Origin: a virus | Taxonomy: Duplodnaviria; Heunggongvirae; Uroviricota; Caudoviricetes | IMG/VR virus record: IMGVR_UViG_3300012943_000001 | Span: 103,743 to 167,742 of that record | Strand: one strand, 5' to 3' | Length of the DNA: 64,000 nucleotides | Shown here: positions 35,422 to 57,282 of the stretch, piece after piece | How positions within the stretch are numbered: position 1 is the first letter of the stretch | Layout: every line of letters starts with the position of its first letter | Made by a program: the position numbers and the translations under genes | Notes under the pieces: model-generated | What the model was told of the DNA's origin: nothing | The model's database searches: none | The model's input: only the letters and a program-made list of their open reading frames with translations

Positions 35422-35895
35422 ATGACTCCAGTCCTCTATATCCTAATGCGTACCGACCTTCCTAGCATGAATGCTGGCAAGGCAATGGCTCAGGCATCGC
35501 ACGCTTCAAACGCTTTTGTTAAAATGGCGGAGGGAGACCTACATGAAATTCGTGCTCAAATGACAGAGCAATGGAAGACTGAAACCAGTCAGGGCTTTGG
35601 TACGGTTCTTGTTCTCGCAGCCACACAAAAGGAAATCGAGGATGCTGTAGAAGCGGCCAGACTCAATATGCTTATTGCGGGTCAAGTCACAGACCCAACA
35701 TACCCTTATCGAGTAGACAATATCGAAATCGCAAACCTCATTCCTACGTCTGTTGATACAGCTCCTCGCTCTGTACCTTTAGATACAAAGACTCCCGTAA
35801 CTCTCTATAGAAGAGAAGTGACTTGCGGCTTTATATTTGGCGACAAAGACGACTATGCTGGTGAGGTAGTCAAACATCTAAAGCTCCATCCATAG
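35422..35895 (+). CDS. PTH2-family peptidyl-tRNA hydrolase
   Basis: RTDLPSMNAGKAMAQASHAS matches the PTH2 R.DL...GK..AQ..HA core. Confidence 0.65.
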   Translation: MTPVLYILMRTDLPSMNAGKAMAQASHASNAFVKMAEGDLHEIRAQMTEQWKTETSQGFGTVLVLAATQKEIEDAVEAARLNMLIAGQVTDPTYPYRVDNIEIANLIPTSVDTAPRSVPLDTKTPVTLYRREVTCGFIFGDKDDYAGEVVKHLKLHP

Positions 35896-35899
35896 TTCA

Positions 35900-36781
35900 A
35901 TGAACGTAAAGTGGCTGATAGAGGACTTCGACGCGGACAACAAAATCTGGGAGACGGTCGCGGAGGTAAGACGCCTCGGCCTACCCTGTGAGATTGCTGA
36001 CTACTACAATTTCTATCTCAACGGCAACGTTGTAGAAGATGGGAAGAAGGTCTTGTCGAAGTTTCAGGATGACGATTGCGTCATCTTCCAAGGCTCCATT
36101 CAGCTCGCCCTCTGGATTAAGAGGAACAAGCCGTGGGTGCCGGGAATGTGGTTTGAACCTGAGAAGTTCAAATGCACGTACTTCTACTCGTACTTGGGTG
36201 AATTCCTATTCAATCAAGACTATATCTTTTCGACCATTGGAGAGTACAAGCGTCGTCGCGACATGTTCTACCACCTTGTTGGCAAGGATGATTGCTTGTT
36301 CATGCGTCCTGACAACGGGACGAAATCATTCACTGGTCAAATCTTTAAGAAGGAAACCCACAATACAGATTGGGCTTTCTTCGACACGTACACAAAGGCT
36401 GAAGACATTGTAGTCATTGCTCCACCAAAGCGTATTCACGCTGAGTATAGATTTGTCATAGGAGGCGACGAGATTGTAGGAGCGAGTATGTATCGCTATG
36501 AAGACAAGGCCCGCCTAATGCCGGGAGCCCCAAAGCGTGCTCATAATGTCGTCAAGGAAATCGTCAAGGTCATCAACAAAGACATGAAGATTGGAGCTAT
36601 GTATGTCGTTGACATAGCGGAAGACTACGATGACAAATACAGCCTCATGGAAATCAATTGCTTCAACTGTGCAGGTCTATACGAGACAGACAGGAAGGCG
36701 GTCGTAGCCGCAGCGAATCAACTCGCTTGGAACGAGTATCAAGAGTATATGAAGGTAGAAGAAGAGTTTTCTCAGTCTTAA
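35900..36781 (+). CDS. ATP-grasp fold enzyme (paralog 1)
   Basis: EYRFVIGGDEIVGASMYRY and MEINCFN resemble ATP-grasp B-loop / Mg-binding E-x-N. Confidence 0.55.
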   Translation: MNVKWLIEDFDADNKIWETVAEVRRLGLPCEIADYYNFYLNGNVVEDGKKVLSKFQDDDCVIFQGSIQLALWIKRNKPWVPGMWFEPEKFKCTYFYSYLGEFLFNQDYIFSTIGEYKRRRDMFYHLVGKDDCLFMRPDNGTKSFTGQIFKKETHNTDWAFFDTYTKAEDIVVIAPPKRIHAEYRFVIGGDEIVGASMYRYEDKARLMPGAPKRAHNVVKEIVKVINKDMKIGAMYVVDIAEDYDDKYSLMEINCFNCAGLYETDRKAVVAAANQLAWNEYQEYMKVEEEFSQS

Positions 36782-36784
36782 GAG

Positions 36785-37525
36785 ATGAAAACCATAGCAT
36801 ACATTCAGAAGGTTGGTGGCGAGTTCCCCAACATCAACTTTCTTACAGCTTATATTGCTCTGAAGAGATTCTTTGGATACAGGATTGTATTCTTTGAGAA
36901 CGTCGAAGAGATACTGGACTACGTAACTAAAGAGACGATTGTCTTTGGCGGCATTCCTGTTATGGATAAGGTCTTTAAGAGGCTTGGCGTCAATCCCATT
37001 ATCCCGTATTATCCTTATAGGCTAATAGATTTTACTGGACGCAAGGTCTGGAAGATGAGCGTCAAGAACGTTCGTCACGACGTTGAGAACGGAGCCGCAT
37101 TCTTTGTGAAGCCCGTAGAGGAAATGAAGAAGAGCTTCAACGGAATGATTATGTCGAAGTTCCTGCATCTTCTACCCATGCATCATTTAGACGAGGATGT
37201 TATGGTATGGTGTTCGGAAATCATCAAGCTCGAATCAGAGTACCGATGCTATATTCATAGAGAGCAGGGAGTGTTGGGTTGTAAGCATTATGCGGGCGAT
37301 TGGAAGAAGATGATTGATACATCCCTTCCTGAAGTAATGCGGCATATCTATTACGACAAGTCTCCTATCGCCTATAGTATCGACCTAGGAGTAACAGACA
37401 AGGGAGAGACCGTTCTCGTGGAATGTAATGACGCATTGTCACTTGGATGCTATGGCTTAGACCCTTCTTTGTATGGATGTATGATTGTAGACAGATGGAA
37501 AGAAATAATGAATGAGCCAAGGTAA
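36785..37525 (+). CDS. ATP-grasp fold enzyme (paralog 2)
   Basis: EYRCYIHREQ..., VLVECNDA motif; tandem to paralog 1. Confidence 0.55.
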   Translation: MKTIAYIQKVGGEFPNINFLTAYIALKRFFGYRIVFFENVEEILDYVTKETIVFGGIPVMDKVFKRLGVNPIIPYYPYRLIDFTGRKVWKMSVKNVRHDVENGAAFFVKPVEEMKKSFNGMIMSKFLHLLPMHHLDEDVMVWCSEIIKLESEYRCYIHREQGVLGCKHYAGDWKKMIDTSLPEVMRHIYYDKSPIAYSIDLGVTDKGETVLVECNDALSLGCYGLDPSLYGCMIVDRWKEIMNEPR

Positions 37526-43005: not shown

Positions 43006-43038
43006 TTGACTTTCCCAAAACACCACCAACACTGACCG
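43006..43038 (+). promoter_or_regulatory. conserved CTTGACTTTCCCAAAAC-type promoter upstream of the RNA ligase gene
   Basis: tcTTGACTttcccaaaacaccaccaacactg. Confidence 0.45.
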
Positions 43039-43041
43039 CTT

Positions 43042-44154
43042 ATGAAAATCGTCCTCTCAGATATCGACCCAGAGTCTTTCATGGTTCATCCGCACGAGAT
43101 TGCGGGTGAGACCTGCTATCTGGTTCAGCCTATCCATATCGGTGCAAAGTGGACCAAATCCAACTTGCACCAACGGTCCTCCGTGTGGAACGCTCAGGGC
43201 GAACTCGTTTCCGCTTCCTTCAAGAAATTCTTCAATTGGGCAGAGCAGCCAGACCTTGCATACACTCCTTTCTCCCTGACGGCGAACGGTGGATGTGAGT
43301 TGATTGAGAAAATCGACGGTTCTACTCTTATCGTTTCGAGGTATAAGGGCCAGACTATCATCCGTACTCGTGGTACAACCGACGCCTCTAAACTCGACAA
43401 CGGTCATGAAATCGAGTGGTTGAAAGACAAGTATCCTCGTGCGTTCAAGTTCCCAGATAAAGATGGGAATGACTACGAGACCGCACCGTACTCATTGATT
43501 TATGAGTGGGTATCTCCAGAGAATAAAATCGTATTGAATTATGGTGAAGACCCAGACATTTATTTGACTGCGGTTATCAACCATGACACCTATACACTTT
43601 GGCCTCAAGACGAAGTAGATGTTCTCGCAACCCTTCTTCTAGTGAAACGTCCAGCTCGCTATAACTTCGCGTCCGTGGCAGAAATGCTTGCGGCTGTCGA
43701 AGACCTAAAGGGCAAGGAAGGTCTCTGCGTCTACTGTAACAAGGGTCAAGATATCCGTAAGGTTAAGTCCGCATGGTATCTCGCGTTGCACCGTATGAAG
43801 ACGGAGTTTGGTTCGTACGAGCGTGTAGTAGACTTCTACTTCACGATGAACAAGCCAACCTATCAGGAATACTACCAGTTCATTGTAGATAACTACGATT
43901 TCGAATTGGCAGAGCAGTGCCGTGGTCATATCTCAAAGGTATGCGACGGCATGAAAGAGGTTGCCGTTCTGATTGCGGCTATGACCGAAAAGGTTGAACC
44001 ACTCCGTACGAAGTCCCGCAAGGATGCAGCCGCAGTAATTCTTCAAGCTTATGGCTTGACAAATCGCTCAGGCATGGCATTCTCCATCCTCGACAACAAG
44101 CCACTCAAGGTAGACGACTACAAAAAACTCCTGTACCAAGTAACGAAGGACTAA
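43042..44154 (+). CDS. ATP-dependent RNA/DNA ligase-family nucleotidyltransferase (Rnl-like)
   Basis: Motif I EKIDGS, motif IV EGLCVY, motif V RKVKS. Confidence 0.6.
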   Translation: MKIVLSDIDPESFMVHPHEIAGETCYLVQPIHIGAKWTKSNLHQRSSVWNAQGELVSASFKKFFNWAEQPDLAYTPFSLTANGGCELIEKIDGSTLIVSRYKGQTIIRTRGTTDASKLDNGHEIEWLKDKYPRAFKFPDKDGNDYETAPYSLIYEWVSPENKIVLNYGEDPDIYLTAVINHDTYTLWPQDEVDVLATLLLVKRPARYNFASVAEMLAAVEDLKGKEGLCVYCNKGQDIRKVKSAWYLALHRMKTEFGSYERVVDFYFTMNKPTYQEYYQFIVDNYDFELAEQCRGHISKVCDGMKEVAVLIAAMTEKVEPLRTKSRKDAAAVILQAYGLTNRSGMAFSILDNKPLKVDDYKKLLYQVTKD

Positions 44155-44155
44155 A

Positions 44156-44479
44156 ATGATTCCCGACAAGCTCCTTAATCTCAGCTATACCAAGCACGCG
44201 ATTAGGGAAGCTTGTTGCGAACGTTTTGGTAGTATAGAGCATCGTCCCAAGAATTTTATAAAGGTGGGTTGCAAGGCGGTGACCGAAAGTGCAGAGAAGC
44301 CTAACGTTATCAAAGCTACCTATATCTATGACGACTGGCGAGATGTCATTTTAGTCATAGACACCATAACTAAAACCGTAATTACAAACTACCTCAAACC
44401 CGCCCAAAACAAAGGCGTATTCAAAGGTCGATTTCGAATTCAGCCAAAGCATGAGCTACAAACTTTTTCTCGACGATGA
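44156..44479 (+). CDS. hypothetical protein
   Basis: 107 aa. Confidence 0.45.
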   Translation: MIPDKLLNLSYTKHAIREACCERFGSIEHRPKNFIKVGCKAVTESAEKPNVIKATYIYDDWRDVILVIDTITKTVITNYLKPAQNKGVFKGRFRIQPKHELQTFSRR

Positions 44480-44813
44480 ACGCATTCCTCAAAAAGTTTT
44501 TTGGGTTCCGCTTCCACTAGGCCCTTGGGTAATTGTCCGTTCTTACAACGAGTTCGTAGAGCACATCACAAAGAACGGTCTACCTGAGTTCATCTCTTTT
44601 GACCACGATTTATCCTTCGAAGACCAGAACGTTGGGGGAAAATCCCCAGACGAATACAAGGAAAAGACCGGGATGCACTGTGCTCACTGGCTGGTTAACT
44701 TTTGCCTTGACAATAACCTCAAGTGTCCTAACTTCACGGTCCACAGTATGAATCCAGTTGGTGCCAGAAACATCCGCTGCCTCCTCCAAGACTTTATCAT
44801 CTCACAAGAATGA
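44451..44813 (+). CDS. hypothetical protein
   Basis: 120 aa. Confidence 0.45.
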   Translation: MSYKLFLDDERIPQKVFWVPLPLGPWVIVRSYNEFVEHITKNGLPEFISFDHDLSFEDQNVGGKSPDEYKEKTGMHCAHWLVNFCLDNNLKCPNFTVHSMNPVGARNIRCLLQDFIISQE

Positions 44814-45262
44814 CGCTTTCAAATCTAGCTTTCAAACTCGCCGTGTTCTACCACGAGGGACAGACGCGTGAAAACGGTGTACCGTATATCACTCACCCTA
44901 TCGCCGTGGCAGAGATTGCCGTCGAATCAGTTGGCAACCTCTATTCTGAGGAAGTCATCGACATCATCAAAGCAATCGCTGACCTCCACGACGTTTTAGA
45001 AGACTGCGAAAAGAAGGGTGCGAGTGTCCAGTCTCTCAAGGAAAGCTTTAAGGGCTTCGCCAGAGCTGACGACGTAATCGACGCCGTAGTTTGCCTCACG
45101 AAAGTTGCGGGCGAATCATATTTCGTATATCTACAACGTGTCAAAGCTAACGAGTTTGCCAGAATCGTCAAGCTCGCAGACCTCCAACATAACCTCGGCG
45201 ACCTGCCTCCGGGCAAACGCCGAGACAAGTATCTCCTCGCTCAGTATTTCCTCCTCAACTAA
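44810..45262 (+). CDS. small alarmone hydrolase (RelA/SpoT HD domain, Mesh1-like)
   Basis: FYHEGQTRENGVPYITHP and LHDVLEDC match (p)ppGpp hydrolase HD motifs; 150 aa. Confidence 0.7.
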   Translation: MTLSNLAFKLAVFYHEGQTRENGVPYITHPIAVAEIAVESVGNLYSEEVIDIIKAIADLHDVLEDCEKKGASVQSLKESFKGFARADDVIDAVVCLTKVAGESYFVYLQRVKANEFARIVKLADLQHNLGDLPPGKRRDKYLLAQYFLLN

Positions 45263-45263
45263 A

Positions 45264-45938
45264 ATGAAGATTCCAAAGTTCGATACAGTTAAGACGAAGA
45301 TTTTCTTCGGAAGCGACTTCCACTTGTCGCACAAGCAGCCATTCATTTGGCAGGCACGTGGCTTCAATTCGATTGAGGAGCACGCTAATTTCATCATTGA
45401 CGAGACGAACAAGGTTGTTGGTGAAGACGACATCCTGTTTTACTTGGGCGATTTCTCGCTCAACTCGACGCCTGACGAGACGCGTGCATACTTCCGTCGA
45501 TTCAAGACGAAGCACATCTATTACATTTGGGGCAACCACGAGTCCAACACTTGGGCTATCTATCAGGACGCAATCCGGGAGAAGTTCAAGGGTCTTCCAT
45601 TCGTGCCTCCAGAGGTTTATCATTTCACATGGGAGAACGTGACGTTCTTTGGTAAGAGCCTTATGGTTAATATCAATGGACAAATCGTAATCCTATCGCA
45701 CTTCGCCCATTACATTTGGGATACGATGCAGCACGGTGCGTGGAATATTTGCGGCCATAGTCATGGCAACTGTGCGGAGCTTGTACCAGAGGCGGCATTT
45801 GGTAAGGTTCTAGACGTTGGCGTGGATGTCGCCGTAAAGCTCAACGCAAGTCCTGTCGTATCGTTTGAAGAGGTGGAGGAAATCCTCTACAAGAAGGCGA
45901 TTCAAGTTCGAGACCATCACAATAAGCAGACAACATGA
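45264..45938 (+). CDS. calcineurin-like metallophosphoesterase (polynucleotide 3'-phosphatase candidate)
   Basis: GDFHL, GDF, GNHE motifs; start at the internal ATG immediately after the upstream stop. Confidence 0.7.
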   Translation: MKIPKFDTVKTKIFFGSDFHLSHKQPFIWQARGFNSIEEHANFIIDETNKVVGEDDILFYLGDFSLNSTPDETRAYFRRFKTKHIYYIWGNHESNTWAIYQDAIREKFKGLPFVPPEVYHFTWENVTFFGKSLMVNINGQIVILSHFAHYIWDTMQHGAWNICGHSHGNCAELVPEAAFGKVLDVGVDVAVKLNASPVVSFEEVEEILYKKAIQVRDHHNKQTT

Positions 45939-46414
45939 TTTCAGAGTTCCATATGTTAGTTGGTATCGTTGGCTCTGGCAAGAGCACGTTATGCAAGAAG
46001 TTACTTGTAGATAAGCAAGCGACTCTTGTCAGCTCTGACGATATACGCCTAGAGGTTTGTGGCAACATGACAGACCAATCCAAGAATGGCTTAATCTTTA
46101 CAAAGATTATTCCTGAGAGGATTAAGGCTGGACTGAAGGCGGGCAACGTTGTGTACGACGCAACGAACTATAACCGCAAGTCTCGCCGTGAGTGGTTGAC
46201 TCTAGCCAAGTCTCTAGGTGCGAGGACGGTAGTTCATCAAATGCTAACCCCATTCGATGAGTGCCGTCGTCGTAATGCCGCACGCCTAGAGCGTGTTGTG
46301 CCTGACTTCGTAATCGACAAGATGGTTGCGGGTTGGGAAGCTCCAGACATGAACATCGAGAAAATCGACGAAATCATCCTAGTATCTGAGAGTGGCGTTG
46401 CGAAAGTTGCTTGA
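45935..46414 (+). CDS. pnk: polynucleotide 5'-kinase domain protein (T4 Pnk kinase-like)
   Basis: P-loop GIVGSGKST; VVYDATNYNRKSRREW resembles the T4 Pnk DxTN...R segment. Confidence 0.7.
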   Translation: MISEFHMLVGIVGSGKSTLCKKLLVDKQATLVSSDDIRLEVCGNMTDQSKNGLIFTKIIPERIKAGLKAGNVVYDATNYNRKSRREWLTLAKSLGARTVVHQMLTPFDECRRRNAARLERVVPDFVIDKMVAGWEAPDMNIEKIDEIILVSESGVAKVA

Positions 46415-46442
46415 CTTTCCCGCCATTCTCGGTACTCTTAAC
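46411..46442 (+). promoter_or_regulatory. conserved CTTGACTTTCC-type promoter
   Basis: gcTTGACTttcccgccattctcggTACTCTtaa. Confidence 0.45.
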
Positions 46443-46465
46443 GTTTTACCTAATCAAATCTTACT

Positions 46466-46933
46466 ATGTCCAAAATCAATCTCGCCAAAGCCCTCAAAGT
46501 CAAAAATTCCCTTATCAGCGAAATCAATCGCTCCAAGGCTGTCTTTGCTCGTGAAAACTCCCGTAAGGAAGGCTCCACGTCCAAGGTTGACCGCGAACAG
46601 CTCTGGGACCAAATCTCCGTCAAAACCCAGCAGTTGGTCAAGCTGAAGGGGCAAATCGCCGCCGCGAACATTGCCATCTATCCAACGCTTGCCCTTATGG
46701 AGGAGGCTAAGTCTGCAATCACGTTCCTACAGCAGCTCAATACTACAGACGGAAAGGTCGTTGAGCATAGCCGCTATGGTACGGGTCCAAACCTTGAGAC
46801 GAACTTCTCCGCCTTCATCACGCAAGATGGGGTGGATAAGAGGGTCAACGAGTTTCAGAAGATTATCGAAGACGCACAAGATGCGGTGGACGCCTATAAC
46901 GCAACCACATTCATCGAAGTCTCATTCGTCTAA
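46466..46933 (+). CDS. hypothetical protein
   Basis: 155 aa after the promoter at 46411. Confidence 0.5.
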   Translation: MSKINLAKALKVKNSLISEINRSKAVFARENSRKEGSTSKVDREQLWDQISVKTQQLVKLKGQIAAANIAIYPTLALMEEAKSAITFLQQLNTTDGKVVEHSRYGTGPNLETNFSAFITQDGVDKRVNEFQKIIEDAQDAVDAYNATTFIEVSFV

Positions 46934-47151
46934 CACTTTGGGCCGCTGGTTCGGCGTCTAACAGGCACGGGAGTATTTTAATGACGAAAGTCATTGGAAA
47001 TCTATCTATAACGATAATGATAAGGAGTAAAGGCTTCGGCCCTAATAAGGTTCAACGCTCATGAACTCAAAAGTTATCAATTAAAGATTAAGAATCAAAA
47101 CTCTGTTTCCCTCACGTTTGTTATTCGCCGGATTAGCGGTTCATTTATTTT

Positions 47152-47304
47152 ATGATAAGATTCGCCATCGCGTTCTTATTGGGAGCGGCAGTCGCACTTT
47201 GGTTCCCCTTGTTTATCAAGGCGGTCCTCTGCCTCATTGGGTACGTAATCGTTGCGTCCTTAGCTACTCTCCTCTTCTTGGCTATCGTGGGTAGCAAGGC
47301 TTGA
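47152..47304 (+). CDS. small hydrophobic peptide (~50 aa, two TM)
   Basis: Manual ORF MIRFAIAFLLGAAVALWFPLF...; not in the ORF track (<60 aa). Confidence 0.35.
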   Translation: MIRFAIAFLLGAAVALWFPLFIKAVLCLIGYVIVASLATLLFLAIVGSKA

Positions 47305-47332
47305 CTTTACTGAAACGGCTACTAGAATGAAT
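47301..47332 (+). promoter_or_regulatory. conserved CTTGACTTTACTGAAACG-type promoter (-10 TAGAAT)
   Basis: gcTTGACTttactgaaacggctacTAGAATgaa. Confidence 0.55.
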
Positions 47333-47355
47333 TTCATGATTAACTCCCAACCCTA

Positions 47356-47649
47356 ATGGCTATTGTCAAAACAACCCGCTATTACCTGAATGTTTTTGGA
47401 AGCATTCAGAGAGACTTCAAGACTACAGCGTCCGAAGGCTCCAACAATAGAGACGACGTATTCGAATATACATTCCCAAACGACGAACTATTCTTTCAGC
47501 ATTTTTATCGACTCAATATCAAAACCGCTCAGGGCAAACTTCTAAAGGGTAAAACCTTGGTGGGGGTCTATACAAGAAGGGGTCTGGAAAAGAAAGACCG
47601 CCCTCGCCCCCGAATGAACAGCCAAAAATTCAGAGAACGCGACGAATGA
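47356..47649 (+). CDS. hypothetical protein
   Basis: 97 aa after the promoter at 47301. Confidence 0.45.
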   Translation: MAIVKTTRYYLNVFGSIQRDFKTTASEGSNNRDDVFEYTFPNDELFFQHFYRLNIKTAQGKLLKGKTLVGVYTRRGLEKKDRPRPRMNSQKFRERDE

Positions 47650-47858
47650 AAAAAGCATTTACATTAGTGGAAATCATGGTCGTCGTTTGTATCATAGGGG
47701 TTGTAGCCGCTATGGCAATTCCCGCCTTTCAAAAGCTCAAAGAGAGTAAAGCGAATGCAGATAAACGCAGGTCTCCACACAGAGTCGAACAAGTACAATC
47801 CTATACTCCTCCCGAGGAAATCATAATCAACGGTTATAAATATCGCCTAGTAAGGTAA
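47646..47858 (+). CDS. type IV pilin-like (prepilin N-terminal methylation motif) small protein
   Basis: KKAFTLVEIMVVVCIIGVVAAMAIP is a canonical class III signal / pilin N-terminus. Confidence 0.5.
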   Translation: MKKAFTLVEIMVVVCIIGVVAAMAIPAFQKLKESKANADKRRSPHRVEQVQSYTPPEEIIINGYKYRLVR

Positions 47859-47860
47859 CA

Positions 47861-48889
47861 ATGGCAGTGGCAAGAAAATTAGCGTCCATCCAAAAAATTC
47901 TAGACATACTTCCCCATGCAAACGCGGACACGTTAGAGATTGCCCGCGTCTTGGGTTGGAAGGTTTGCGTCAAGAAGGGCGAGTTCAAAGTAGGAGACTA
48001 CTGTGTCTACATGGAGATTGACTCTATGTTGCCGCAGAAACCTGAGTTTGAATTCCTTCGTTCCAAAGGATTCAGGATTAAAACCGTCAGGCTCCGTGGA
48101 GAAGTGTCTCAGGGCATCGCATTCCCACTATCTATCCTTGATGGATATAAGGTTCACGACCAGCATCAGGAGATACCTTACTTAGAAGATTTGGATGTCA
48201 CTGAGCTTATTGGCGTCGTCAAGTACGAGCCCGCAATCCACTTCGCTATTGGCGGAGAGATTAAGGGTCATTTCCCAGAGTTTTTGAAGAAGACGGACGA
48301 GACCCGCATCCAAGCCTTTCCTCGTCTCCTAGACCGCTACAAGGGCGAACGCTTCTACGTTACAGAGAAGTTGGACGGCTCTTCCATGACCGTATATTTC
48401 AAAGACGGTATGTTTGGTATTTGCAGTCGTAACTACGAACTTAGAGAGACTGAAGGTAACGCTCTATGGGCAACCGCAAAGAGGCTCCACCTACCCGAGA
48501 AACTTACGGCTTTTGGTCGCAATATTGCGATTCAGGGTGAGCTTATCGGTCCGGGCATCCAAGGTAACAAATACAAGGTCAAAGAACATCAGTTCCGTCC
48601 GTTCAACGCTATCAACATCAATGAGGCGAAACGTATTGGAGCTGTCGAACTGTTCTCTTTGTGCTCTGCACTAGACCTAGAGCCCGTTCCTGTAATCGAC
48701 TTCTGGTTCGTTCTTAACCATACTGTAGACGATATAGTGTCGTACGCAGAGGGTAAGAGTGCTTTGAATTCAAACACGGAAAGAGAGGGTGTCGTCATTC
48801 GTTACATCGAAGAGAAGTACGACGAAGACATTGGAGACTTGAGCTTCAAAGTCATCAGCCCTAACTTCCTGCTTAAATCAGACGAGTAA
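47861..48889 (+). CDS. RNA ligase, DRB0094/Rnl5 family
   Basis: N-terminal OB LASIQKI...ADTLEIARVLGWKVCVKKGEFKVGDYCVYMEIDS; motif I EKLDGSS. Confidence 0.75.
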   Translation: MAVARKLASIQKILDILPHANADTLEIARVLGWKVCVKKGEFKVGDYCVYMEIDSMLPQKPEFEFLRSKGFRIKTVRLRGEVSQGIAFPLSILDGYKVHDQHQEIPYLEDLDVTELIGVVKYEPAIHFAIGGEIKGHFPEFLKKTDETRIQAFPRLLDRYKGERFYVTEKLDGSSMTVYFKDGMFGICSRNYELRETEGNALWATAKRLHLPEKLTAFGRNIAIQGELIGPGIQGNKYKVKEHQFRPFNAININEAKRIGAVELFSLCSALDLEPVPVIDFWFVLNHTVDDIVSYAEGKSALNSNTEREGVVIRYIEEKYDEDIGDLSFKVISPNFLLKSDE

Positions 48890-48890
48890 T

Positions 48891-52657: not shown

Positions 52658-52733
52658 GGGGATGTAGCTCAGTTGGTAGAGCACCTGCTTTGCAAGCAGA
52701 TTGTCGCAGGTTCGACCCCTGTCATCTCCACCA
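52658..52733 (+). tRNA. tRNA-Ala(TGC)
   Basis: GGGGATGTAGCTCAG...TTCGACC...CTCCACCA; loop TTTGCAA; G3:U70. Confidence 0.8.
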
Positions 52734-52782
52734 TTTCATTGACGCGGTTGTTACTACACGGGTTAGTCAGGAAGTAACATTT

Positions 52783-52858
52783 GGGGGCAAAGCATTGCTG
52801 GCAATGCGTCTGTCTTGCACACAGAAAACTGCGGGTTCGACTCCCGCTGTCTCCACCA
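52783..52858 (+). tRNA. tRNA-Ala(TGC)-like, atypical D-arm
   Basis: GGGGGCA...loop CTTGCAC...TTCGACT...TGTCTCCACCA; G3:U70 present. Confidence 0.5.
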
Positions 52859-52992
52859 ATTTCGTATCAGTGAGTTCAATAGCAAAAGCCGCAAGGTGAA
52901 GTAACTATTATTCATAAGCTCTGTCTGAGCAAGTCGGGTTAAAATCCGAAAGCTGATACAAGCCCGCATATAGGTTGCGGGTGTTAATTTAT

Positions 52993-53067
52993 GGCCCGGT
53001 AGTTTAGAAGTTAGAATACCTGTCTTTCACACAGGAGATGAGGGAGCGTTACCCTCTCGGGCTACCA
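52993..53067 (+). tRNA. tRNA-Glu(TTC)-like, unusual T-loop
   Basis: Loop CTTTCAC; D-loop TAGAAGTTAG as in Glu; T-loop AGCGTTA non-canonical. Confidence 0.45.
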
Positions 53068-53150
53068 TTTATATGACGGCGTAGAGGTTCGGTATTACTA
53101 CGACTCGTAGATACCGTCATTAGCTTGAGATTAGATACCTCAAGCGTTAA

Positions 53151-53240
53151 GGAGAGGTGTCAGAGCGGTTTATTGAGTCTGTCTTGAAAACAGAAGGGTT
53201 GTAAAAGGCCCCGTGGGTTCAAATCCCACCCTCTCCTCCA
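53151..53240 (+). tRNA. tRNA-Ser(TGA), type II
   Basis: GGAGAGG...loop CTTGAAA...long variable arm...TTCAAAT...CCTCTCCTCCA. Confidence 0.75.
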
Positions 53241-53297
53241 TTTTTCTGTTGTGAATGTTCAGCGGGCCTAGCGACCCGCCTATAGAGTGAGCAATGG

Positions 53298-53323
53298 GAA
53301 GCAACTAGCGGGTTGCTTTTTGT
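53298..53323 (+). terminator. rho-independent terminator candidate inside the tRNA array
   Basis: GAAGCAACtagcggGTTGCTT + TTTTG. Confidence 0.5.
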
Positions 53324-53397
53324 GTCAGAAAGGGCACGATATAAAAGACGAATACGATGGAACGCGGTCGTCTCTAAATAATACGGAGTTCCACCAC

Positions 53398-53487
53398 GGA
53401 GAGTTGGGCGAGTGGTTTATGCCGAGACTTTGCTAAAGTCTTGCTGCCGAAAGGTGGCCGGGGGTTCGAATCCCTCATTCTCCGCCA
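53398..53487 (+). tRNA. tRNA-Ser(GCT), type II
   Basis: Loop TTGCTAA, long variable arm, TTCGAAT T-loop, CCA. Confidence 0.7.
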
Positions 53488-53491
53488 ATTT

Positions 53492-53567
53492 GGTTGTATA
53501 GTGTAAAGGTCGCATTGGTAGATTGTCAATCTACAGGTCGGGGTTCAACTTCCCCGTACAACCGCCA
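53492..53567 (+). tRNA. tRNA-Asp(GTC)
   Basis: Loop TTGTCAA; TTCAACT T-loop; ...CAACCGCCA. Confidence 0.7.
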
Positions 53568-53573
53568 ATTTAT

Positions 53574-53647
53574 GGTTCCATCGTTCAACGGATAGGACAG
53601 CATCCTTCTAAGTTGCATATGGGGGTTCGATTCCCTCTGGAACTACC
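53574..53647 (+). tRNA. tRNA-Arg(TCT)
   Basis: Loop CTTCTAA, stem GCATC/GTTGC (one U.U); TTCGATT. Confidence 0.65.
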
Positions 53648-53652
53648 ATTTA

Positions 53653-53728
53653 TAGAGTCATCGTTCAACGGATAGGACTTAAGTTTCCTAAACTTAGTAT
53701 CAGGGTTCGATTCCCTGTGACTCTACCA
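53653..53728 (+). tRNA. tRNA-Arg(CCT)
   Basis: Stem TAAGT/ACTTA, loop TTCCTAA; TTCGATT; ACCA. Confidence 0.7.
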
Positions 53729-53738
53729 TTCAGTTTAT

Positions 53739-53814
53739 GGACGATTAGCACAGCGGCTAATGCACCTGCTTTACACGCAGGCTACCGGGGGTTCGAGTCC
53801 GTCATCGTCTACCA
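53739..53814 (+). tRNA. tRNA-Val(TAC)
   Basis: Loop TTTACAC; TTCGAGT; ...CGTCTACCA. Confidence 0.7.
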
Positions 53815-53926
53815 TTTAGGTTTGCTCACCAGCCTTTGTAATAGTGAGTCTTTTGATGATTAAGGTGAAAATCATCCAGTATACATAGTGGATTATGTCA
53901 TCGTCTTCTTTACGATAAAAGAAAAT

Positions 53927-54001
53927 GGGTTGTAAGCATAGGTGGCGATGCTCTAGGCTCTTAACCTTGAGAACGGGGTTCGATTCCCCGACAACCCACC
54001 A
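53927..54001 (+). tRNA. tRNA-Lys(CTT)
   Basis: GGGTTGT...loop CTCTTAA...TTCGATT...ACAACCCACCA. Confidence 0.65.
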
Positions 54002-54005
54002 TTTT

Positions 54006-54078
54006 GACGCGTTAGCCAAGCGGCAAGGCGGCTCTCTGCAAAAGGGTCTAGACTGGTTCGACTCCAGTACGTGTCTCC
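54006..54078 (+). tRNA. tRNA-Cys(GCA)
   Basis: Loop CTGCAAA; GGTTCGACTCC; discriminator U + CCA as in Cys. Confidence 0.7.
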
Positions 54079-54125
54079 AATTATGAATTATAAGGAAAGA
54101 GAAAATAGAAACGCAGAATAGTTAT

Positions 54126-54199
54126 TGGCCTATGATGTAATGGTAGCGTCTTCGCTTGATAGGCGAATGGTTAGGGTTCGATTCCCTGTAGGCCAACCA
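54126..54199 (+). tRNA. tRNA-Ile(GAT)
   Basis: Stem TTCGC/GCGAA, loop TTGATAG; TTCGATT; ...GGCCAACCA. Confidence 0.65.
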
Positions 54200-54274
54200 G
54201 TTTATGACTCGACACCGTTGTGGCGAAAACCTTTTTGAAGGTTAATAACTCGCTCTTCGCTTTAGAGTCTCTTT

Positions 54275-54351
54275 GGAAATATAGCTCAACTGGTTAGAGC
54301 AGCATCCTTTTAAGTTGTTGGTTGTGGGTTCGAGTCCCGCTATTTCCACCA
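54275..54351 (+). tRNA. tRNA-Lys(TTT)
   Basis: GGAAATATAGCTCAACTGG...loop CTTTTAA...TTCGAGT...TATTTCCACCA. Confidence 0.7.
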
Positions 54352-54484
54352 ATTTCCGTTAGTAGTAACACCCCTATAATTAGACGAACCTTAAGTCATC
54401 GCTCTTTTTGAAGCTGGGACTACGTGTTTACTCGTAGTAAATAGTCTCGTGTGGAAACGAGTAGCTACGACGGAATTAGTTTAT

Positions 54485-54558
54485 GGACCTTTAGTGTAAT
54501 GTAGCACGAGAACCTTTGAAGTTCTCCAGTGTAGGTTCAAGTCCTACGGGGTCTGCCA
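54485..54558 (+). tRNA. tRNA-Gln(TTG)
   Basis: Stem AGAAC/GTTCT, loop CTTTGAA; discriminator G; TTCAAGT. Confidence 0.6.
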
Positions 54559-54563
54559 ATTTT

Positions 54564-54637
54564 GGGTTTATGGTGTAATGGCTGCACAGCGTCCTTTTAA
54601 GTCGTATGTCACGGTTCGAGTCCGTGTAGACCCACCA
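54564..54637 (+). tRNA. tRNA-Lys(TTT), second divergent copy
   Basis: Stem GCGTC/GTCGT (U.U), loop CTTTTAA; TTCGAGT; ACCA. Confidence 0.55.
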
Positions 54638-54643
54638 ATTTAT

Positions 54644-54718
54644 TGTTCTATTGTGTAATGGTTAGCACGGCATCCTTTGAAGTTGCTTGTCCTCGTTCGA
54701 ATCGAGGTAGAACAGCCA
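54644..54718 (+). tRNA. tRNA-Gln(TTG), second copy (U1:A72, G73)
   Basis: TGTTCTA...loop CTTTGAA...TTCGAAT...TAGAACAGCCA. Confidence 0.65.
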
Positions 54719-54813
54719 GTCTCCAACGGCGGGTAGGCCCGTCAAACAATATAGGAAGTCCTAACAAAACATATATCAGAAGGAGTAGGTGAAATCTTCT
54801 GAGCTTCCACTAT

Positions 54814-54888
54814 GCAAGTGTCGTCCAATGGATAGGACATCAGATTACGAATCTGAGAACGGGGGTTCGACTCCCTCCACTTGTACCA
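54814..54888 (+). tRNA. tRNA-Arg(ACG)
   Basis: Stem TCAGA/TCTGA, loop TTACGAA; TTCGACT; ACCA. Confidence 0.65.
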
Positions 54889-54894
54889 ATTTAT

Positions 54895-54970
54895 GGATAC
54901 GTGAGATAATGGAAGTCTGCTTGTCTTCGAAACAAGTTCTATGTAGGTTCGAGTCCTACCGTGTCCACCA
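54895..54970 (+). tRNA. tRNA-Arg(TCG)
   Basis: Stem CTTGT/ACAAG, loop CTTCGAA; TTCGAGT. Confidence 0.6.
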
Positions 54971-55114
54971 ATTTGCGGTCATACCGCAGCGTTTAGTAGT
55001 AATAGTTGCGAAGCAAAGTTCAATGCCGCATGTTAAAGTCAAAGTCTTCTTTGTAAAGATGATGAGCCCAGTACGGGTAATGTGCGAAACGTTTAAGCTA
55101 GACGTAGAATTTAT

Positions 55115-55209
55115 AGAGGGGTCGCATAGTTGGCCTAGTGCGTTCGCTTGGAAAGCGAATGGTCGGTTAAAAACCCGGCCCGCGAGTTCGAATCTCGCTC
55201 CCTCTGCCA
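55115..55209 (+). tRNA. tRNA-Ser(GGA), type II
   Basis: Loop TTGGAAA; long variable arm; TTCGAAT; ...CCCTCTGCCA. Confidence 0.65.
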
Positions 55210-55219
55210 AGTTTCTTAT

Positions 55220-55306
55220 GGAGATGACGCCGCAATTGGTAGCGGTATTCGGCTGTAAACCGAACGCCTTCGGGCACTGTGGGTTCGAATCCCTCCAGCT
55301 CCACCA
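55220..55306 (+). tRNA. tRNA-Tyr(GTA), type II
   Basis: Loop CTGTAAA; variable hairpin GCC-TTCG-GGC; one acceptor mismatch. Confidence 0.6.
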
Positions 55307-55311
55307 TTTAT

Positions 55312-55397
55312 GGGAGTCATGACAATCGGCTAGTCGCTTCGCTGTAAACGAAGTAACCCGCGAAGGGTGGCAGGTTCAATTCCTGCGGCTCCCACCA
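55312..55397 (+). tRNA. tRNA-Tyr(GTA), second divergent copy
   Basis: Stem CTTCG/CGAAG, loop CTGTAAA; variable ACCC-GCGA-AGGGT; TTCAATT. Confidence 0.6.
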
Positions 55398-55404
55398 AGT
55401 TTAT

Positions 55405-55479
55405 AGGGTGTTCGTCCAATTGGTAGGACAACTGTCTCCAAAATAGTGAATCTCGGTTCAAGTCCGAGGCACCCTGCCA
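55405..55479 (+). tRNA. tRNA-Trp(CCA)
   Basis: Loop CTCCAAA; discriminator G; TTCAAGT. Confidence 0.65.
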
Positions 55480-55558
55480 CCTTCCGACGCCCGTCTATAG
55501 ACTCGTCTATAGCTTGCGAAGAAGTTTGTGCGTTTGGGTTCGCCTTAAAAAGCCCTAT

Positions 55559-55633
55559 GGGATGGTAGCTCCAATGTAGAGCAGATGCCTGAAGAGCATC
55601 GTGTTGTCGGTTCAAGTCCGACCCTTCCCACCA
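55559..55633 (+). tRNA. tRNA-Phe(GAA)
   Basis: Stem GATGC/GCATC, loop CTGAAGA; TTCAAGT; ACCA. Confidence 0.65.
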
Positions 55634-55639
55634 ATTTAT

Positions 55640-55716
55640 TATGTCGAACGAACCATCGGTTGGACGACCTGACTGTTAATCAGGTGAAGCAAGTTCGAAC
55701 CTTGCCGACATAGCCA
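55640..55716 (+). tRNA. tRNA-Asn(GTT)-like, atypical D-arm
   Basis: Stem CCTGA/TCAGG, loop CTGTTAA; TTCGAAC; GCCA end; D-stem poorly paired. Confidence 0.4.
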
Positions 55717-55722
55717 TTTTAT

Positions 55723-55799
55723 TCCGCGTTAGCTCAGTTGGCAGTAGCGAGTGTCTGTTAAACACTAGGTCGTACGTTCGAACCGTACACGCGGAGCCA
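55723..55799 (+). tRNA. tRNA-Asn(GTT)
   Basis: TCCGCGTTAGCTCAGTTGG...loop CTGTTAA...TTCGAAC...ACGCGGAGCCA. Confidence 0.75.
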
Positions 55800-55839
55800 A
55801 ATTTCAGTTGAAAAATTAACGAGTCCTGTTAATATCAGG

Positions 55840-56391
55840 ATGTCGGTTCAATCAGATAGGGTCAAACTTTGGAGAAAACAAACCAAGCTACGTATCGTTC
55901 AGGCGATGGGTGGAAAGTGTCAGTGTTGCGGATACAACAAATGTGTAGACGCCTTAGAGATTCATCACCTAGACCCAGAGGAGAAGTCCTTTACGGTCTC
56001 TGCATTAAGAGCGAATCACGGAAGCTGGGACTCCATAGTGAAAGAACTTAGAAAGTGTGTAATGCTTTGCGGCATCTGTCACGCAGAGTACCACGCGGGC
56101 ATGAGAGAAATTCCCGCAGACGCCCAAAGATTCAACGAAGAATACGTTGACTACAAAGCGTTGGGCAAAGAAAAGAGTTTCTGCCCAATTTGTAAAGAAG
56201 AGAAAGAGGAGTTCAACAAAACATGCTCGTACAAGTGTGCGGCTGTATACAAGGCTCCAATAGATTGGTCTAAGTACGACTTGAAGAAAATGTACGTGGA
56301 CGAAAAGAAAACTCAAACAGAGATTGGCACAATAGTTGGCCTGTCTGATGTTGCGGTTAGTAAGCGACTTAAAAAGTTGGGTCTCAAATAA
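55840..56391 (+). CDS. HNH homing-type endonuclease
   Basis: CQCCGYNKCVDALEIHHLDP...CGICHAEYH; inserted between tRNA genes. Confidence 0.7.
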   Translation: MSVQSDRVKLWRKQTKLRIVQAMGGKCQCCGYNKCVDALEIHHLDPEEKSFTVSALRANHGSWDSIVKELRKCVMLCGICHAEYHAGMREIPADAQRFNEEYVDYKALGKEKSFCPICKEEKEEFNKTCSYKCAAVYKAPIDWSKYDLKKMYVDEKKTQTEIGTIVGLSDVAVSKRLKKLGLK

Positions 56392-56398
56392 TTTTTAT

Positions 56399-56477
56399 AC
56401 GAACGTAGTGCTAGTCTGGTTAAGCGACTCGATTTGGAATCGAGATTTCGCGGGTTCAAATCCCGCCGTTCGTACCA
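56399..56477 (+). tRNA. tRNA-Pro(TGG)
   Basis: Stem CTCGA/TCGAG, loop TTTGGAA; TTCAAAT; ...CGTTCGTACCA. Confidence 0.55.
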
Positions 56478-56496
56478 TTTGTTAGTGTTAGTATAT

Positions 56497-56574
56497 CCGT
56501 CATTAGCGTAATCTGGCTATCGCGTTTCGTTTGGGGCGAAGAGACTGCTGGTTCGAATCCAGCATGGCGGACCA
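56497..56574 (+). tRNA. tRNA-Pro(TGG), second copy
   Basis: Loop TTTGGGG; TTCGAAT; ...ATGGCGGACCA; long D-loop. Confidence 0.5.
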
Positions 56575-56579
56575 TTTAT

Positions 56580-56652
56580 TCACTCGTAGTTTAGTATAAA
56601 ATTCCCTCGCTTTAGAGGGTGACACGCGGCTTATAACCCGTCGAGTGAGCCA
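56580..56652 (+). tRNA. tRNA-like gene with a 6-nt anticodon loop (GCTTTA)
   Basis: Perfect acceptor TCACTCG/CGAGTGA + GCCA; stem CCCTC/GAGGG closes a 6-nt loop; no GG in the D-loop. Confidence 0.35.
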
Positions 56653-56717
56653 TTCTTGCAAGACCGTGAAGCTTGAGGTTGCAACCTTGAGTGAGTGACG
56701 GAAAGCGAAACGTACGT

Positions 56718-56790
56718 GGTGAAGTAACCCAGTGGAAGAGGTAGGCCCGTTAAAGGGCCTCAAGCGTTGGTTCGAATCCAACCTTTGCCG
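56718..56790 (+). tRNA. tRNA-like gene with a 6-nt anticodon loop (GTTAAA), no encoded CCA
   Basis: Acceptor GGTGAAG/CTTTGCC (2 G.U); stem GGCCC/GGGCC; T-arm GTTGG-TTCGAAT-CCAAC. Confidence 0.35.
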
Positions 56791-56875
56791 TATGCGTACT
56801 GAGTAGCATAACTTTATCTAGTGGTTCGCCACTTAGAACCTTCAGGTCTCCATGAAGCAAAACCGGAGACATTAT

Positions 56876-56952
56876 GGGCGTGTGGCGTAATTGGTAAACG
56901 CGTTTGACTCAAAATCAAAATTCTGTCGGTTCGAGTCCGACCTCGCCTACCA
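56876..56952 (+). tRNA. tRNA with anticodon CAA (Leu-like decoding) but a class I body
   Basis: Stem TTTGA/TCAAA, loop CTCAAAA; TTCGAGT; ...CTCGCCTACCA; one acceptor mismatch. Confidence 0.45.
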
Positions 56953-56956
56953 CTTT

Positions 56957-57087
56957 GGGGAGTTAGTTAAAAACTAATCATCCACTTCGACATTTCTCTG
57001 GCAACAGTAGCTATGAAGAGGATTACATCGGAAAAACAAATGCCTGTAAAGCGTTAATAGGAGGTTCGAATCCTCCACTCCCCACCA
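56957..57087 (+). tRNA. elongated tRNA-like gene (~131 nt) with an internal insertion
   Basis: GGGGAGT...(approx 70-nt insert)...GGAGGTTCGAATCCTCC ACTCCCC A CCA; perfect 7-bp acceptor. Confidence 0.35.
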
Positions 57088-57150
57088 ATTTACTTTTCAA
57101 CGCTCGAAGTCCTACGGGACAAGGGCCGAAAAGAAACAGAAAGGATAACA

Positions 57151-57237: not shown

Positions 57238-57246
57238 GAAAACAAA

Positions 57247-57278
57247 TGGGGGCGGCTCTGTAATGGGGTCGCCCCTTT
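57247..57278 (+). terminator. rho-independent terminator after the small peptide ORF
   Basis: GGGGGCGGCtctgtaatggggtCGCCCC + TTTCTATT. Confidence 0.5.
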
Positions 57279-57282
57279 CTAT

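Follow-up and report, generated by a model that had tools for sequence, protein, structure and literature searches.

What is a phage doing with two RNA ligases, a polynucleotide kinase, phosphoesterases and an alarmone-hydrolase-like enzyme in one short block of genes? The question is raised by positions 43042-48889 of a 64,000-nucleotide (nt) stretch of DNA (the window; positions 103,743 to 167,742 of IMG/VR record IMGVR_UViG_3300012943_000001), which forms part of the 205,482-bp metagenomic jumbo-phage contig ERZ27256383:k141_2352669. Our analysis indicates that the block is probably an RNA repair cassette of this ~205-kb phage, its substrate most likely being tRNA, that would counter host nucleases leaving 2',3'-cyclic phosphate and 5'-OH ends. 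A first-pass annotation of the window had likewise described an RNA end-healing and end-sealing toolkit in a translation-rescue context, and this description was upheld by intact catalytic residues, tight packing and gene linkage across lineages. Every gene that it named, including a PTH2-type peptidyl-tRNA hydrolase at 35422, proved to be a real + strand open reading frame (ORF) with a significant profile match at or near the position given, but its list passed over a cREC gene, a gene that we call p155 together with a structured RNA, and ORFs of 107, 97 and 70 amino acids (aa). Coordinates are collected in Table 1.

Sealing would fall to two RNA ligases of different families, both recognized in the first-pass annotation. 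The Rnl1-family ligase matched PF09511 (RNA_lig_T4_1) at E=2.1e-16, well above the gathering score (60.9 bits vs. a cut-off of 28.3), and phrog_562 at E=1e-37 over aa 37-357. Its nucleotidyl-lysine motif, KIDGS, lies at aa 90 (nt 43309-43323), and motifs I (KIDGS), IV (EGLCVY) and V (KVKS) all aligned with those of T4 Rnl1 (2c5u; E=4.5e-5). Its score against TIGR02308 (53.8 bits) was well under the equivalog cut-off of 242, and identity to any phage record was no more than 27%; judged by these scores, it is a divergent member of the family and not an RnlA equivalog. The second ligase belongs to the Rnl5 (DRB0094) family, with 204 bits against TIGR02306 (cut-off, 151), an N-terminal OB domain (PF21189, PHA02142; E=1.7e-32), a match to PF09414 (E=3.1e-24) and the motif KLDGSS at aa 170 (nt 48368-48385). 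Residues 4-334 of its 342 aligned with Naegleria NgrRnl (5cot; E=3.2e-68). Thus, it resembles DraRnl (DRB0094) and NgrRnl in its full-length match, OB domain and KLDGSS lysine, and differs from them in being encoded by a phage. Members of the Rnl5 family prefer nicked-duplex substrates, and the same preference is assumed here from family membership.

Healing of the broken ends would require that a cyclic phosphate be opened, the remaining phosphate removed and the 5'-OH phosphorylated. The component most specific to cyclic-phosphate ends is the overlooked cREC ('cyclic-phosphate processing receiver' domain) protein, which matched PF20274 at E=3.2e-22 (79.5 bits vs. a cut-off of 27). Residues D8, D9, D51, D53, H98 and S99 were invariant among its homologues, D8, D9, D51 and D53 being the acidic positions of the receiver domain, and the protein is predicted to be a 2',3'-cyclic phosphodiesterase, as proposed for this domain by Iyer et al. 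(Iyer, Anantharaman, Krishnan, Burroughs and Aravind, 2021; PMC7824862). The metallophosphoesterase (MPE) was detected by Pfam (E=1.7e-4) and phrog_547 (E=1.4e-35). Its five metal-binding motifs (DxH, GD, GNH(E/D), H and GHxH) were conserved across 30 homologues, with all motif residues invariant except the Asp of the first motif, D18, which was nearly so. A search of the PDB with the MPE sequence gave no match; on structure, the calcineurin-like metallophosphoesterase fold was confirmed and the closest solved structure was aq_1665. The first-pass annotation was right to place a calcineurin-like phosphoesterase directly before the kinase gene, which it overlaps by 4 nt, but its view of this protein as the split-off phosphatase of a Pnkp was ruled out on structure, since MPE is of the aq_1665/COG4186 type rather than the Pnkp/lambda-phosphatase type. 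Nor is the kinase fused to a metallophosphoesterase of the lambda-phosphatase clade. We regard MPE as a candidate 3'-/2'-phosphatase or cyclic phosphodiesterase.

The kinase (PNK, for polynucleotide kinase) matched AAA_33 (E=1.3e-21) and TIGR04075, the model of the bacterial Pnkp kinase region (E=2e-15), with GSGKST at aa 13 and D35 and R38 within SSDDIR. Its best solved relative was the kinase of Clostridium thermocellum Pnkp (4gp6; E=1.7e-9), with which the P-loop, SSD35DIR38, DATN and RN..R all aligned, followed at weaker scores by PSTK, the seryl-tRNA(Sec) kinase (4e-6), and T4 Pnk (8e-5). By these relatives, PNK falls in the branch of P-loop kinases that act on polynucleotides and tRNA. 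It had earlier been called T4-Pnk-like, which is correct as to its polynucleotide-kinase type, but C. thermocellum Pnkp is the closer relative. The 159-aa protein has no further domain and thus carries no fused HAD-type (DxDxT) 3'-phosphatase like that of T4 Pnkp.

The six genes from the Rnl1-family ligase to PNK are separated by +1, -29, -4, +1 and -4 nt, and Rnl5 follows 1.4 kb downstream. We found five further contigs of the same clade with the cassette (L089, L090, L091, L258 and L259), MPE protein identity ranging from 76% to ~56%. In the four that span it (all but L259, which is cut just upstream of the RelA/SpoT-type hydrolase), the order is Rnl1, one to three variable small ORFs, cREC, the small RelA/SpoT-type hydrolase (SAH), MPE and PNK; Rnl5 lies downstream in every contig except L089, which ends first. 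The 107-aa ORF between Rnl1 and cREC has no match in Pfam, PHROGs, NCBIfam or PADLOC and a homologue only in the closest relative, L089 (2.9e-50), the other clade members having different small ORFs there. Insertions between the end of PNK and Rnl5 are also variable: p155 follows PNK in L089, L090, L258 and L259 and is absent in L091, while the succession of 97-aa ORF, 70-aa ORF and Rnl5 is common to L091, L258 and L259. The 70-aa ORF (47646-47858, + strand), directly upstream of Rnl5, has a type IV pilin-like methylation motif (N_methyl, PF07963; E=1.3e-5).

Since synteny within the clade reflects vertical inheritance, linkage was tested outside it. For each of the SAH, cREC and MPE profiles, 80 IMG/VR loci were sampled with 10 kb on either side and dereplicated at 80% anchor identity. 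Among the 41 cREC-anchored clusters, MPE was present in 14, Rnl5 in 10, PNK in 10, Rnl1 in nine and SAH in none. The 38 MPE-anchored clusters contained Rnl1 in 15 cases, often adjacent, PTH2 in six, Rnl5 in six, PNK in five, cREC in four, an R2K ATP-grasp gene in three and again no SAH. By comparison, the 45 SAH-anchored clusters had Rnl5 in three, Rnl1 in one, MPE in one, and neither cREC nor PNK. With this last set as a rough control, linkage of Rnl1, MPE and PNK gave Fisher p values of 3e-5 to 3e-4; small temperate phages account for many of the SAH loci, which makes the control imperfect. PNK and MPE were adjacent in both gene orders across lineages (L187, the L219 cluster of 24 contigs, and L092), and such variation in gene order argues for a functional and against an inherited linkage. 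More distant MPE homologues lay near a 2H-phosphoesterase-like gene (L093) and near a CCA-adding-type nucleotidyltransferase together with an SAH (L094). Therefore, these results indicate that MPE, cREC, PNK, Rnl1 and Rnl5, with PTH2 nearby, form a recurrent RNA-repair association.

Two observations were made on the surroundings of these genes. In the first 13,600 nt of L092 (JGI 3300072492, 220 kb; positions 1-13600), the distant MPE homologue sits amid dense conflict genes, among them a PNK-like kinase, an RtcR-like sigma-54 activator AAA+ protein, NUDIX, PARP, a DNA ligase, DUF2828/DUF7788, YAcAr and a PLD-like protein. In the window itself, two paralogous ATP-grasp genes of the R2K clade, with matches to R2K_2 and R2K_3, come next after PTH2 (35422-37525 for the three genes, + strand), and the recurrence of PTH2 and R2K genes near MPE hints at a wider translation-rescue neighbourhood.

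A further HD-domain protein, of 228 aa, lies upstream of the cassette. It matched PF01966 (E=8.3e-8) and, over its C-terminal HD part, YhaM (9h3f; E=1.5e-10); it thus resembles the HD domain of this 3'-5' exonuclease without YhaM's N-terminal OB domain. It is found upstream of the cassette in L089, L090, L091 and L258 as well, and in one of the 41 cREC-anchored clusters; in L008, a homologue occurs near an SAH and an RNA ligase. The protein could be an RNA 3'-end trimming enzyme. It is probably also the 'HD phosphohydrolase' that the first-pass annotation had counted within 43042-48889, in which case that entry was misplaced, as the gene lies outside the interval and its product is of nuclease type (YhaM/Cas3-HD-like).

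From the families present, the cassette may be envisaged to act as follows. A host nuclease would cut tRNA or another RNA, producing 2',3'-cyclic phosphate and 5'-OH termini; opening the cyclic phosphate and taking off the 3' or 2' phosphate then left would be the work of cREC and/or MPE, and the Pnkp-type kinase would phosphorylate the 5'-OH. The Rnl1-family ligase would then seal breaks in single-stranded loops, e.g., the anticodon loop, and Rnl5 would seal nicks in duplex regions having a 3'-OH RNA strand. SAH would most likely strip 3'-pyrophosphate from alarmones ((p)ppGpp/(p)ppApp) or from tRNA 3'-CCA ends modified by toxic synthetases, and the upstream PTH2 and the 42 downstream tRNA genes would belong to the same translation-rescue theme. 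Phage T4 likewise repairs tRNA with Pnkp and Rnl1, countering the anticodon nuclease PrrC. The logic is the same in both phages, i.e., the 2',3'-cyclic phosphate and 5'-OH ends are healed and then sealed by an Rnl1-family ligase, and the P-loop kinases are homologous (D35, R38). However, in T4 Pnkp, the kinase and a HAD-type (DxD) 3'-phosphatase are domains of one protein, whereas the kinase of the window stands alone, so that phosphate removal would fall to cREC, MPE and perhaps the HD enzyme, in whatever way the three phosphoesterases share this work. In addition, the second ligase is Rnl5 instead of T4 Rnl2, and the Rnl1 is very divergent. Compared with the Pnkp-Hen1 system of C. thermocellum, to whose kinase that of the window is most similar, both have a binuclear metallophosphoesterase as an end-healing partner; the window lacks the kinase-phosphatase-ligase fusion, and no Hen1 match was obtained among the ~55 ORFs, a part of those in the window, that were scanned against Pfam.

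The component list also matches that given for jumbo phages, which combine ATP-dependent ligases, PNK, cRec, 2H or HAD phosphoesterases and PTH2, a few using 'calcineurin-like and HD-like' phosphatases (Iyer et al., 2021; PMC7824862); PTH2 and many tRNAs are common to these systems and the window. The passages of that article drawn on here name Rnl1 and Rnl2, whereas the second ligase of the window is Rnl5; they treat a RelA/SpoT-type hydrolase separately, whereas in the window it is inside the healing gene string; and they make no mention of a DIP1984-like gene with a structured RNA. The cassette is one more phage RNA-repair gene set of the kind described, a clean and compact example that adds little conceptually. 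Its distinguishing features are an aq_1665-type MPE as a recurrent healing partner, an SAH fixed in the healing string, and the p155 gene with its RNA.

The position of SAH raises the question of whether it takes part in repair. SAH matched the N-terminus of TIGR00691 (E=4.7e-12) and, among PDB entries, Aph1 (7smg; 7e-10), TtRel (2e-8) and MESH1 (8e-5 and 4e-4). The first-pass annotation had described a 150-aa RelA/SpoT-type HD hydrolase inside the block, which it is, and labelled it Mesh1-like, which is imprecise given that Aph1 and TtRel are closer and that MESH1 (~179 aa) is about 30 aa longer. It had also suggested profile checks; RNA_lig_T4_1 and metallophosphoesterase matches were duly found, but Pfam HD_4 reached only 21.4 bits, under its gathering cut-off of 27.2, while most homologues of SAH carry PF13328. 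All motifs of RelA/SpoT homologue (RSH) hydrolases are present and intact (HxGQxR, HP, HD..ED and K.AD..N, with HDVLED at aa 60-65): H15, Q18, H29, H60, D61, E64, K121, D124 and N128 were invariant in 32 homologues, R20 and D65 nearly so, and all eleven were invariant among the clade orthologues and PaSpo of phage SSU5. SAH is alike to Aph1 in length (150 vs. 149 aa) and in its RSH HD fold. However, when aligned to 7smg and scored for the Aph1 signature (D24, R96, D116, R119, K133 and Y134; PMC10083569), SAH had R20 for D24 and G130 for D116, keeping R96 (as R110) and a K-Y pair (K140, Y141), and an Aph1-type (p)ppApp-specific enzyme was thereby ruled out. As SAH is neither of Aph1 type nor specifically Mesh1-like, its substrate cannot be read from its sequence.

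Enzymes of this family hydrolyze (p)ppGpp and (p)ppApp, and MESH1, ATfaRel and SSU5 PaSpo strip the pyrophosphate that toxSAS enzymes add to tRNA 3'-CCA ends (bioRxiv 10.1101/2021.04.30.441581, 10.1101/2024.07.05.602228). Two roles of SAH may be considered accordingly. It is quite possible, if just short of probable, that SAH is a plain alarmone hydrolase acting on (p)ppGpp and/or (p)ppApp, which would blunt the stringent response or toxin-made (p)ppApp independently of the repair genes. The intact RSH motifs agree with this, as does the identity of the closest solved structures, which are those of (p)ppApp and (p)ppGpp hydrolases, and Iyer et al. (PMC7824862), in the part drawn on here, count the 'HD-alarmone PDEase' of jumbo phages among counter-nucleotide devices and keep it apart from RNA repair. 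Moreover, homologues of SAH commonly stand alone: they occur in 479 phage records, mostly of small temperate phages without repair genes (many from Streptococcus, Pasteurella and Listeria), and of three other large contigs with an SAH, one had a ligase nearby and two had no repair neighbours. (In the scan of viral contigs, the single SAH sequence retrieved nothing, and a profile was required.) SAH is not a conserved partner of repair genes in general, given its absence from all 79 cREC- or MPE-anchored clusters; a ligase or MPE was within 10 kb in just 5 of the 45 SAH-anchored clusters, a frequency near chance for a ±10-kb window in a genome of 100-200 kb. Against an alarmone role stand the substrate specificity, which the substituted Aph1 residues and the shortness relative to MESH1 leave unreadable, and the position of SAH in the clade, which such a role leaves unexplained. 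SAH lies between the two repair phosphoesterases, cREC and MPE, in five of the five clade members having that junction, and L259 keeps it directly before MPE. SAH is a clade-specific insertion into the repair core.

This fixed slot, kept although identity among three aligned clade members is only ~39-53%, speaks for SAH as an integral repair enzyme. SAH would then remove the 3'-pyrophosphate that toxSAS enzymes (CapRel, FaRel2, PhRel) add to tRNA CCA, and the cassette would repair two kinds of tRNA lesion, cleaved anticodon loops as well as blocked 3' ends; we consider this possible but on balance doubtful. SAHs including SSU5 PaSpo do reverse tRNA pyrophosphorylation by toxSAS, a Pnk-like 3'-phosphatase role has been noted for RSH hydrolases by Kurata et al., and the GQxR arginine (R20) of SAH is common to PaSpo and Rel. 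Looser co-localizations of an SAH and a ligase or MPE occur independently in L045 (Rnl1, a different MPE, then SAH), L008 (SAH, RNA ligase and a homologue of the 228-aa HD protein), L094 (CCA-adding-type nucleotidyltransferase, SAH and MPE within 4 kb) and L019/L087/L088, and in Pakpunavirus Adele, PNK, ligase and SAH are genes 025, 026 and 032 in the published numbering. However, the scarcity of SAH near repair genes argues against this role as it favours the former one, PaSpo shares the catalytic residues of SAH at just 29% identity and 213 aa, and no toxSAS is known for the host.

Several further points weigh against an RNA repair cassette as such, together with the loose and mostly stand-alone distribution of SAH. 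Tight packing is weak evidence by itself because phage genes are generally tightly packed, and the synteny of the whole neighbourhood within the clade is inherited. T4 Rnl1 also serves in tail-fibre attachment. Among the scanned subset of window ORFs, no RtcB, RlaP, Hen1 or CCA-adding gene was found. The substrate of MPE is deduced from its neighbours, because aq_1665 has no known function, and the catalysis ascribed to cREC is a published prediction. A more thoroughgoing objection, that the genes are neighbours by ancestry in an accessory region and form no single pathway but might act in processing nicked DNA, in maturing the 42 tRNAs of the phage itself or in tail-fibre attachment, would accommodate the clade-wide synteny of the region (dCMP deaminase, YopX and Cupin genes included), the tail-fibre attachment in the PHROG label of the Rnl1 family and the large tRNA array close by, but is very improbable, since the same families co-occur in many lineages with other gene orders and surroundings, a recurrence that is unexpected from ancestry alone and fits the known repair logic of T4 and jumbo phages.

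Behind PNK, the repair cassette of the window is joined by p155 and the structured RNA. The p155 protein matched NF038048 (DIP1984) over its full length (E=9.4e-5) and belongs to a family of ~150-aa proteins with 1630 representative clusters by profile. Its AlphaFold2 model (pLDDT 88.3) consists of three long helices and a small sheet, and the sole fold match was 3kdq, an uncharacterized protein of Corynebacterium diphtheriae; a literature search on DIP1984, DUF6847 and 3KDQ found nothing relevant. Cultured phages yielded no homologue, and only two uncultured megaphages did; at these two loci, a covariance model of the RNA built from three clade sequences gave one partial match (E=0.09).

The RNA starts 4 nt after the p155 stop codon. 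The fold of 46934-47151 had a minimum free energy of -68.1 kcal/mol (z=-5.26), and none of 200 shuffles was equally stable. A closing helix of ~23 bp joins the two ends of the RNA, 5' to 3'; its many G-U pairs indicate the + strand, and internal hairpins carry GAAA and UUCG loops. The most conserved part is single-stranded and consists of GAUAAnGAUAAUGA and five or six U(C/U)AAA repeats ~10 nt apart. A U-rich tract, UAUUUUAU, directly follows the closing helix, so that this helix may double as a terminator. Compared with L089, the 422-nt gap showed 77% identity over 291 nt, a DNA conservation like that of the flanking genes. RNA homologues follow p155 in L089, L090, L258 and L259, each with a closing helix of ~20-23 bp whose arms differ in sequence, while L091, without p155, has no such RNA. 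In the five clade copies, 89% of cells were paired (33-47% in slid controls) and 28 of 54 pairs had compensatory double changes, a number matched by no shuffle.

The pairing of gene and RNA extends beyond the clade. Of 40 IMG/VR loci retrieved with p155 homologues as anchors, 28 had a gap of 170-260 nt without ORFs directly behind the gene, and the 260 nt downstream folded with a median z-score of -2.9; the unrelated contig L017 has the same architecture (z=-4.0). The covariance model matched, on the + strand, after p155 homologues at 14 further IMG/VR loci and at all five loci from metagenome-assembled genomes (MAGs), these five having been retrieved with a narrow p155 alignment and lying on Planctomycetota (57-61% GC) and deltaproteobacterial contigs. 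Where the full model matched, the RNA began from a few to ~60 nt past the stop codon. Across 13 diverse sequences, 83% of cells were paired vs. 58% in shuffles and 36-42% in slid controls, and double changes were seen in 48 of 54 pairs vs. 29.8±3.0 in shuffles; these values, like those of the five clade copies, are to be read with the caution that the alignments were fitted to the model structure, that model E-values are rough and that the sample is small. Thus, in the IMG/VR viral and MAG contigs sampled, p155-family genes are usually followed by a covariation-supported RNA. Rfam 15 has no family for it (best, RAGATH-17, 21.4 bits vs. 102.3, E=1.4), a wider scan also found none, and ARAGORN called no tRNA within it. 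In our view, the RNA is a candidate for a new family that goes together with an orphan family of proteins. The 50-aa ORF directly after the RNA (47152-47304, + strand) is very hydrophobic, with two predicted membrane helices; it has no family match and 60% aa identity to an equivalent in L089 only, and could be a small membrane peptide or no gene at all.

RNA-repair genes lay within 6 kb of p155 at ~10 of the 40 loci. It is conceivable, though we hold it with little confidence, that p155 and the ~210-nt RNA constitute an undescribed phage ribonucleoprotein, or a unit of protein and 3'-UTR-derived RNA, that was recruited into the repair cassette of this clade. Such a unit could work with the repair enzymes as a Y-RNA/Ro-like scaffold, or as an RNA decoy or sponge; with the U(C/U)AAA and GAUAA motifs repeated in its single-stranded part, it could titrate a host defence factor that cleaves or binds RNA. 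The resemblance to Ro60/Y-RNA (Rsr-YrlA) lies in a ~200-nt noncoding RNA, a long 5'-3' closing helix and a place in an RNA-repair cluster, and is an analogy of architecture only; the RNA of the window has no match to the Y-RNA or YrlA families of Rfam, no TROVE/Ro60 gene was seen nearby, and the partner gene encodes instead a 155-aa helical DIP1984-like protein.

Table 1. Features of the cassette and of related parts of the window, with positions in the window unless a contig is named.
Feature	Position	Strand	Basis or remark
PTH2-type peptidyl-tRNA hydrolase	35422-35895	+	PF01981 E=1.9e-9; 7 kb upstream of cassette
YhaM/Cas3-HD-like HD protein, 228 aa	41157-41843	+	PF01966, 9h3f; outside 43042-48889
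Rnl1-family RNA ligase, 370 aa	43042-44154	+	PF09511, phrog_562
ORFan, 107 aa	44156-44479	+	No family match; 3' end overlaps cREC start by 29 nt
cREC ('cyclic-phosphate processing receiver' domain) protein, 120 aa	44451-44813	+	PF20274
Small RelA/SpoT-type HD hydrolase (SAH), 150 aa	44810-45262	+	TIGR00691 N-terminus, PDB matches
Stand-alone metallophosphoesterase (MPE), aq_1665/COG4186 type, 224 aa	45264-45938	+	phrog_547, Pfam
Polynucleotide 5'-kinase-like P-loop kinase (PNK), 159 aa	45935-46414	+	AAA_33, TIGR04075, 4gp6
DIP1984-like protein (p155), 155 aa	46466-46933	+	NF038048
Gap of 422 nt holding structured RNA	46934-47355		
Conserved structured RNA, ~210 nt	46937-47147	+	Fold z-score, covariance model
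RNA homologues in other contigs, among others	L089 9576-9786; L090 9644-9849; L258 8466-8678; L259 2377-2593; L017 13226-13460		
Strongly hydrophobic ORF, 50 aa	47152-47304	+	Equivalent ORF in L089 only
Two small ORFs (97 aa; 70 aa with type IV pilin-like N-terminal methylation motif)	47356-47858	+	
Rnl5 (DraRnl/NgrRnl-type) RNA ligase, 342 aa	47861-48889	+	TIGR02306, 5cot
42 tRNA genes	52658-63857	all +	ARAGORN; 3.8 kb downstream of Rnl5

Nearly all genes are on the + strand. No near-identical DNA to the window was found among deposited phage records (n=50,697), its sole match being the ENA contig to which it belongs. Among deposited sequences, individual genes have their closest relatives in uncultured megaphages; in one of these, LR756501, Rnl5 (50% identity) and cREC (45% identity) are 130 kb apart. 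The tRNA array covers ~11 kb and contains duplicates of Ala-UGC, Lys-UUU, Gln-UUG, Tyr, Pro and Gly-UCC (two each), unusually long calls for Ile-UAU (92 nt) and Thr-UGU (87 nt), and one call (56717-56791) with an undetermined two-base anticodon; no Met or His tRNA was called by ARAGORN in the window. At 25571-28545 (+ strand), a NAPRTase gene stands beside a glutamine-dependent NAD synthetase gene (CN_hydrolase and NAD_synthase), a pair for phage NAD+ salvage or synthesis that would plausibly act against NAD+-depleting defences. At 33423-34771 (+ strand), genes for a LemA family member (E=2.4e-57) and, next, a TPM-domain protein (E=6e-32) form a membrane pair of bacterial type. PADLOC returned nothing relevant, and consensus scans for promoters and terminators were uninformative, promoter-like sites being no commoner than in shuffles. 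A recognizable Shine-Dalgarno sequence is absent from the 20 nt upstream of most cassette start codons (43022-48890), and so the host may be of a lineage with weak Shine-Dalgarno usage.

The findings bear on three families. The strong guilt by association of aq_1665/COG4186-type MPEs with Rnl1, PNK, cREC and PTH2 gives them a testable role in RNA end healing. The fixed place of an SAH between healing enzymes provides a natural setting in which to ask whether tRNA 3' ends, and not free alarmones, are the substrates of phage SAHs. Finally, the pairing of p155 with its RNA provides a handle on an orphan family of ~1600 clusters with a solved structure, and a candidate new class of RNA. Should the p155-RNA unit indeed act as a decoy or work alongside the repair enzymes, and should the SAH remove pyrophosphate from tRNA 3' ends, the cassette would counter several distinct attacks on translation.

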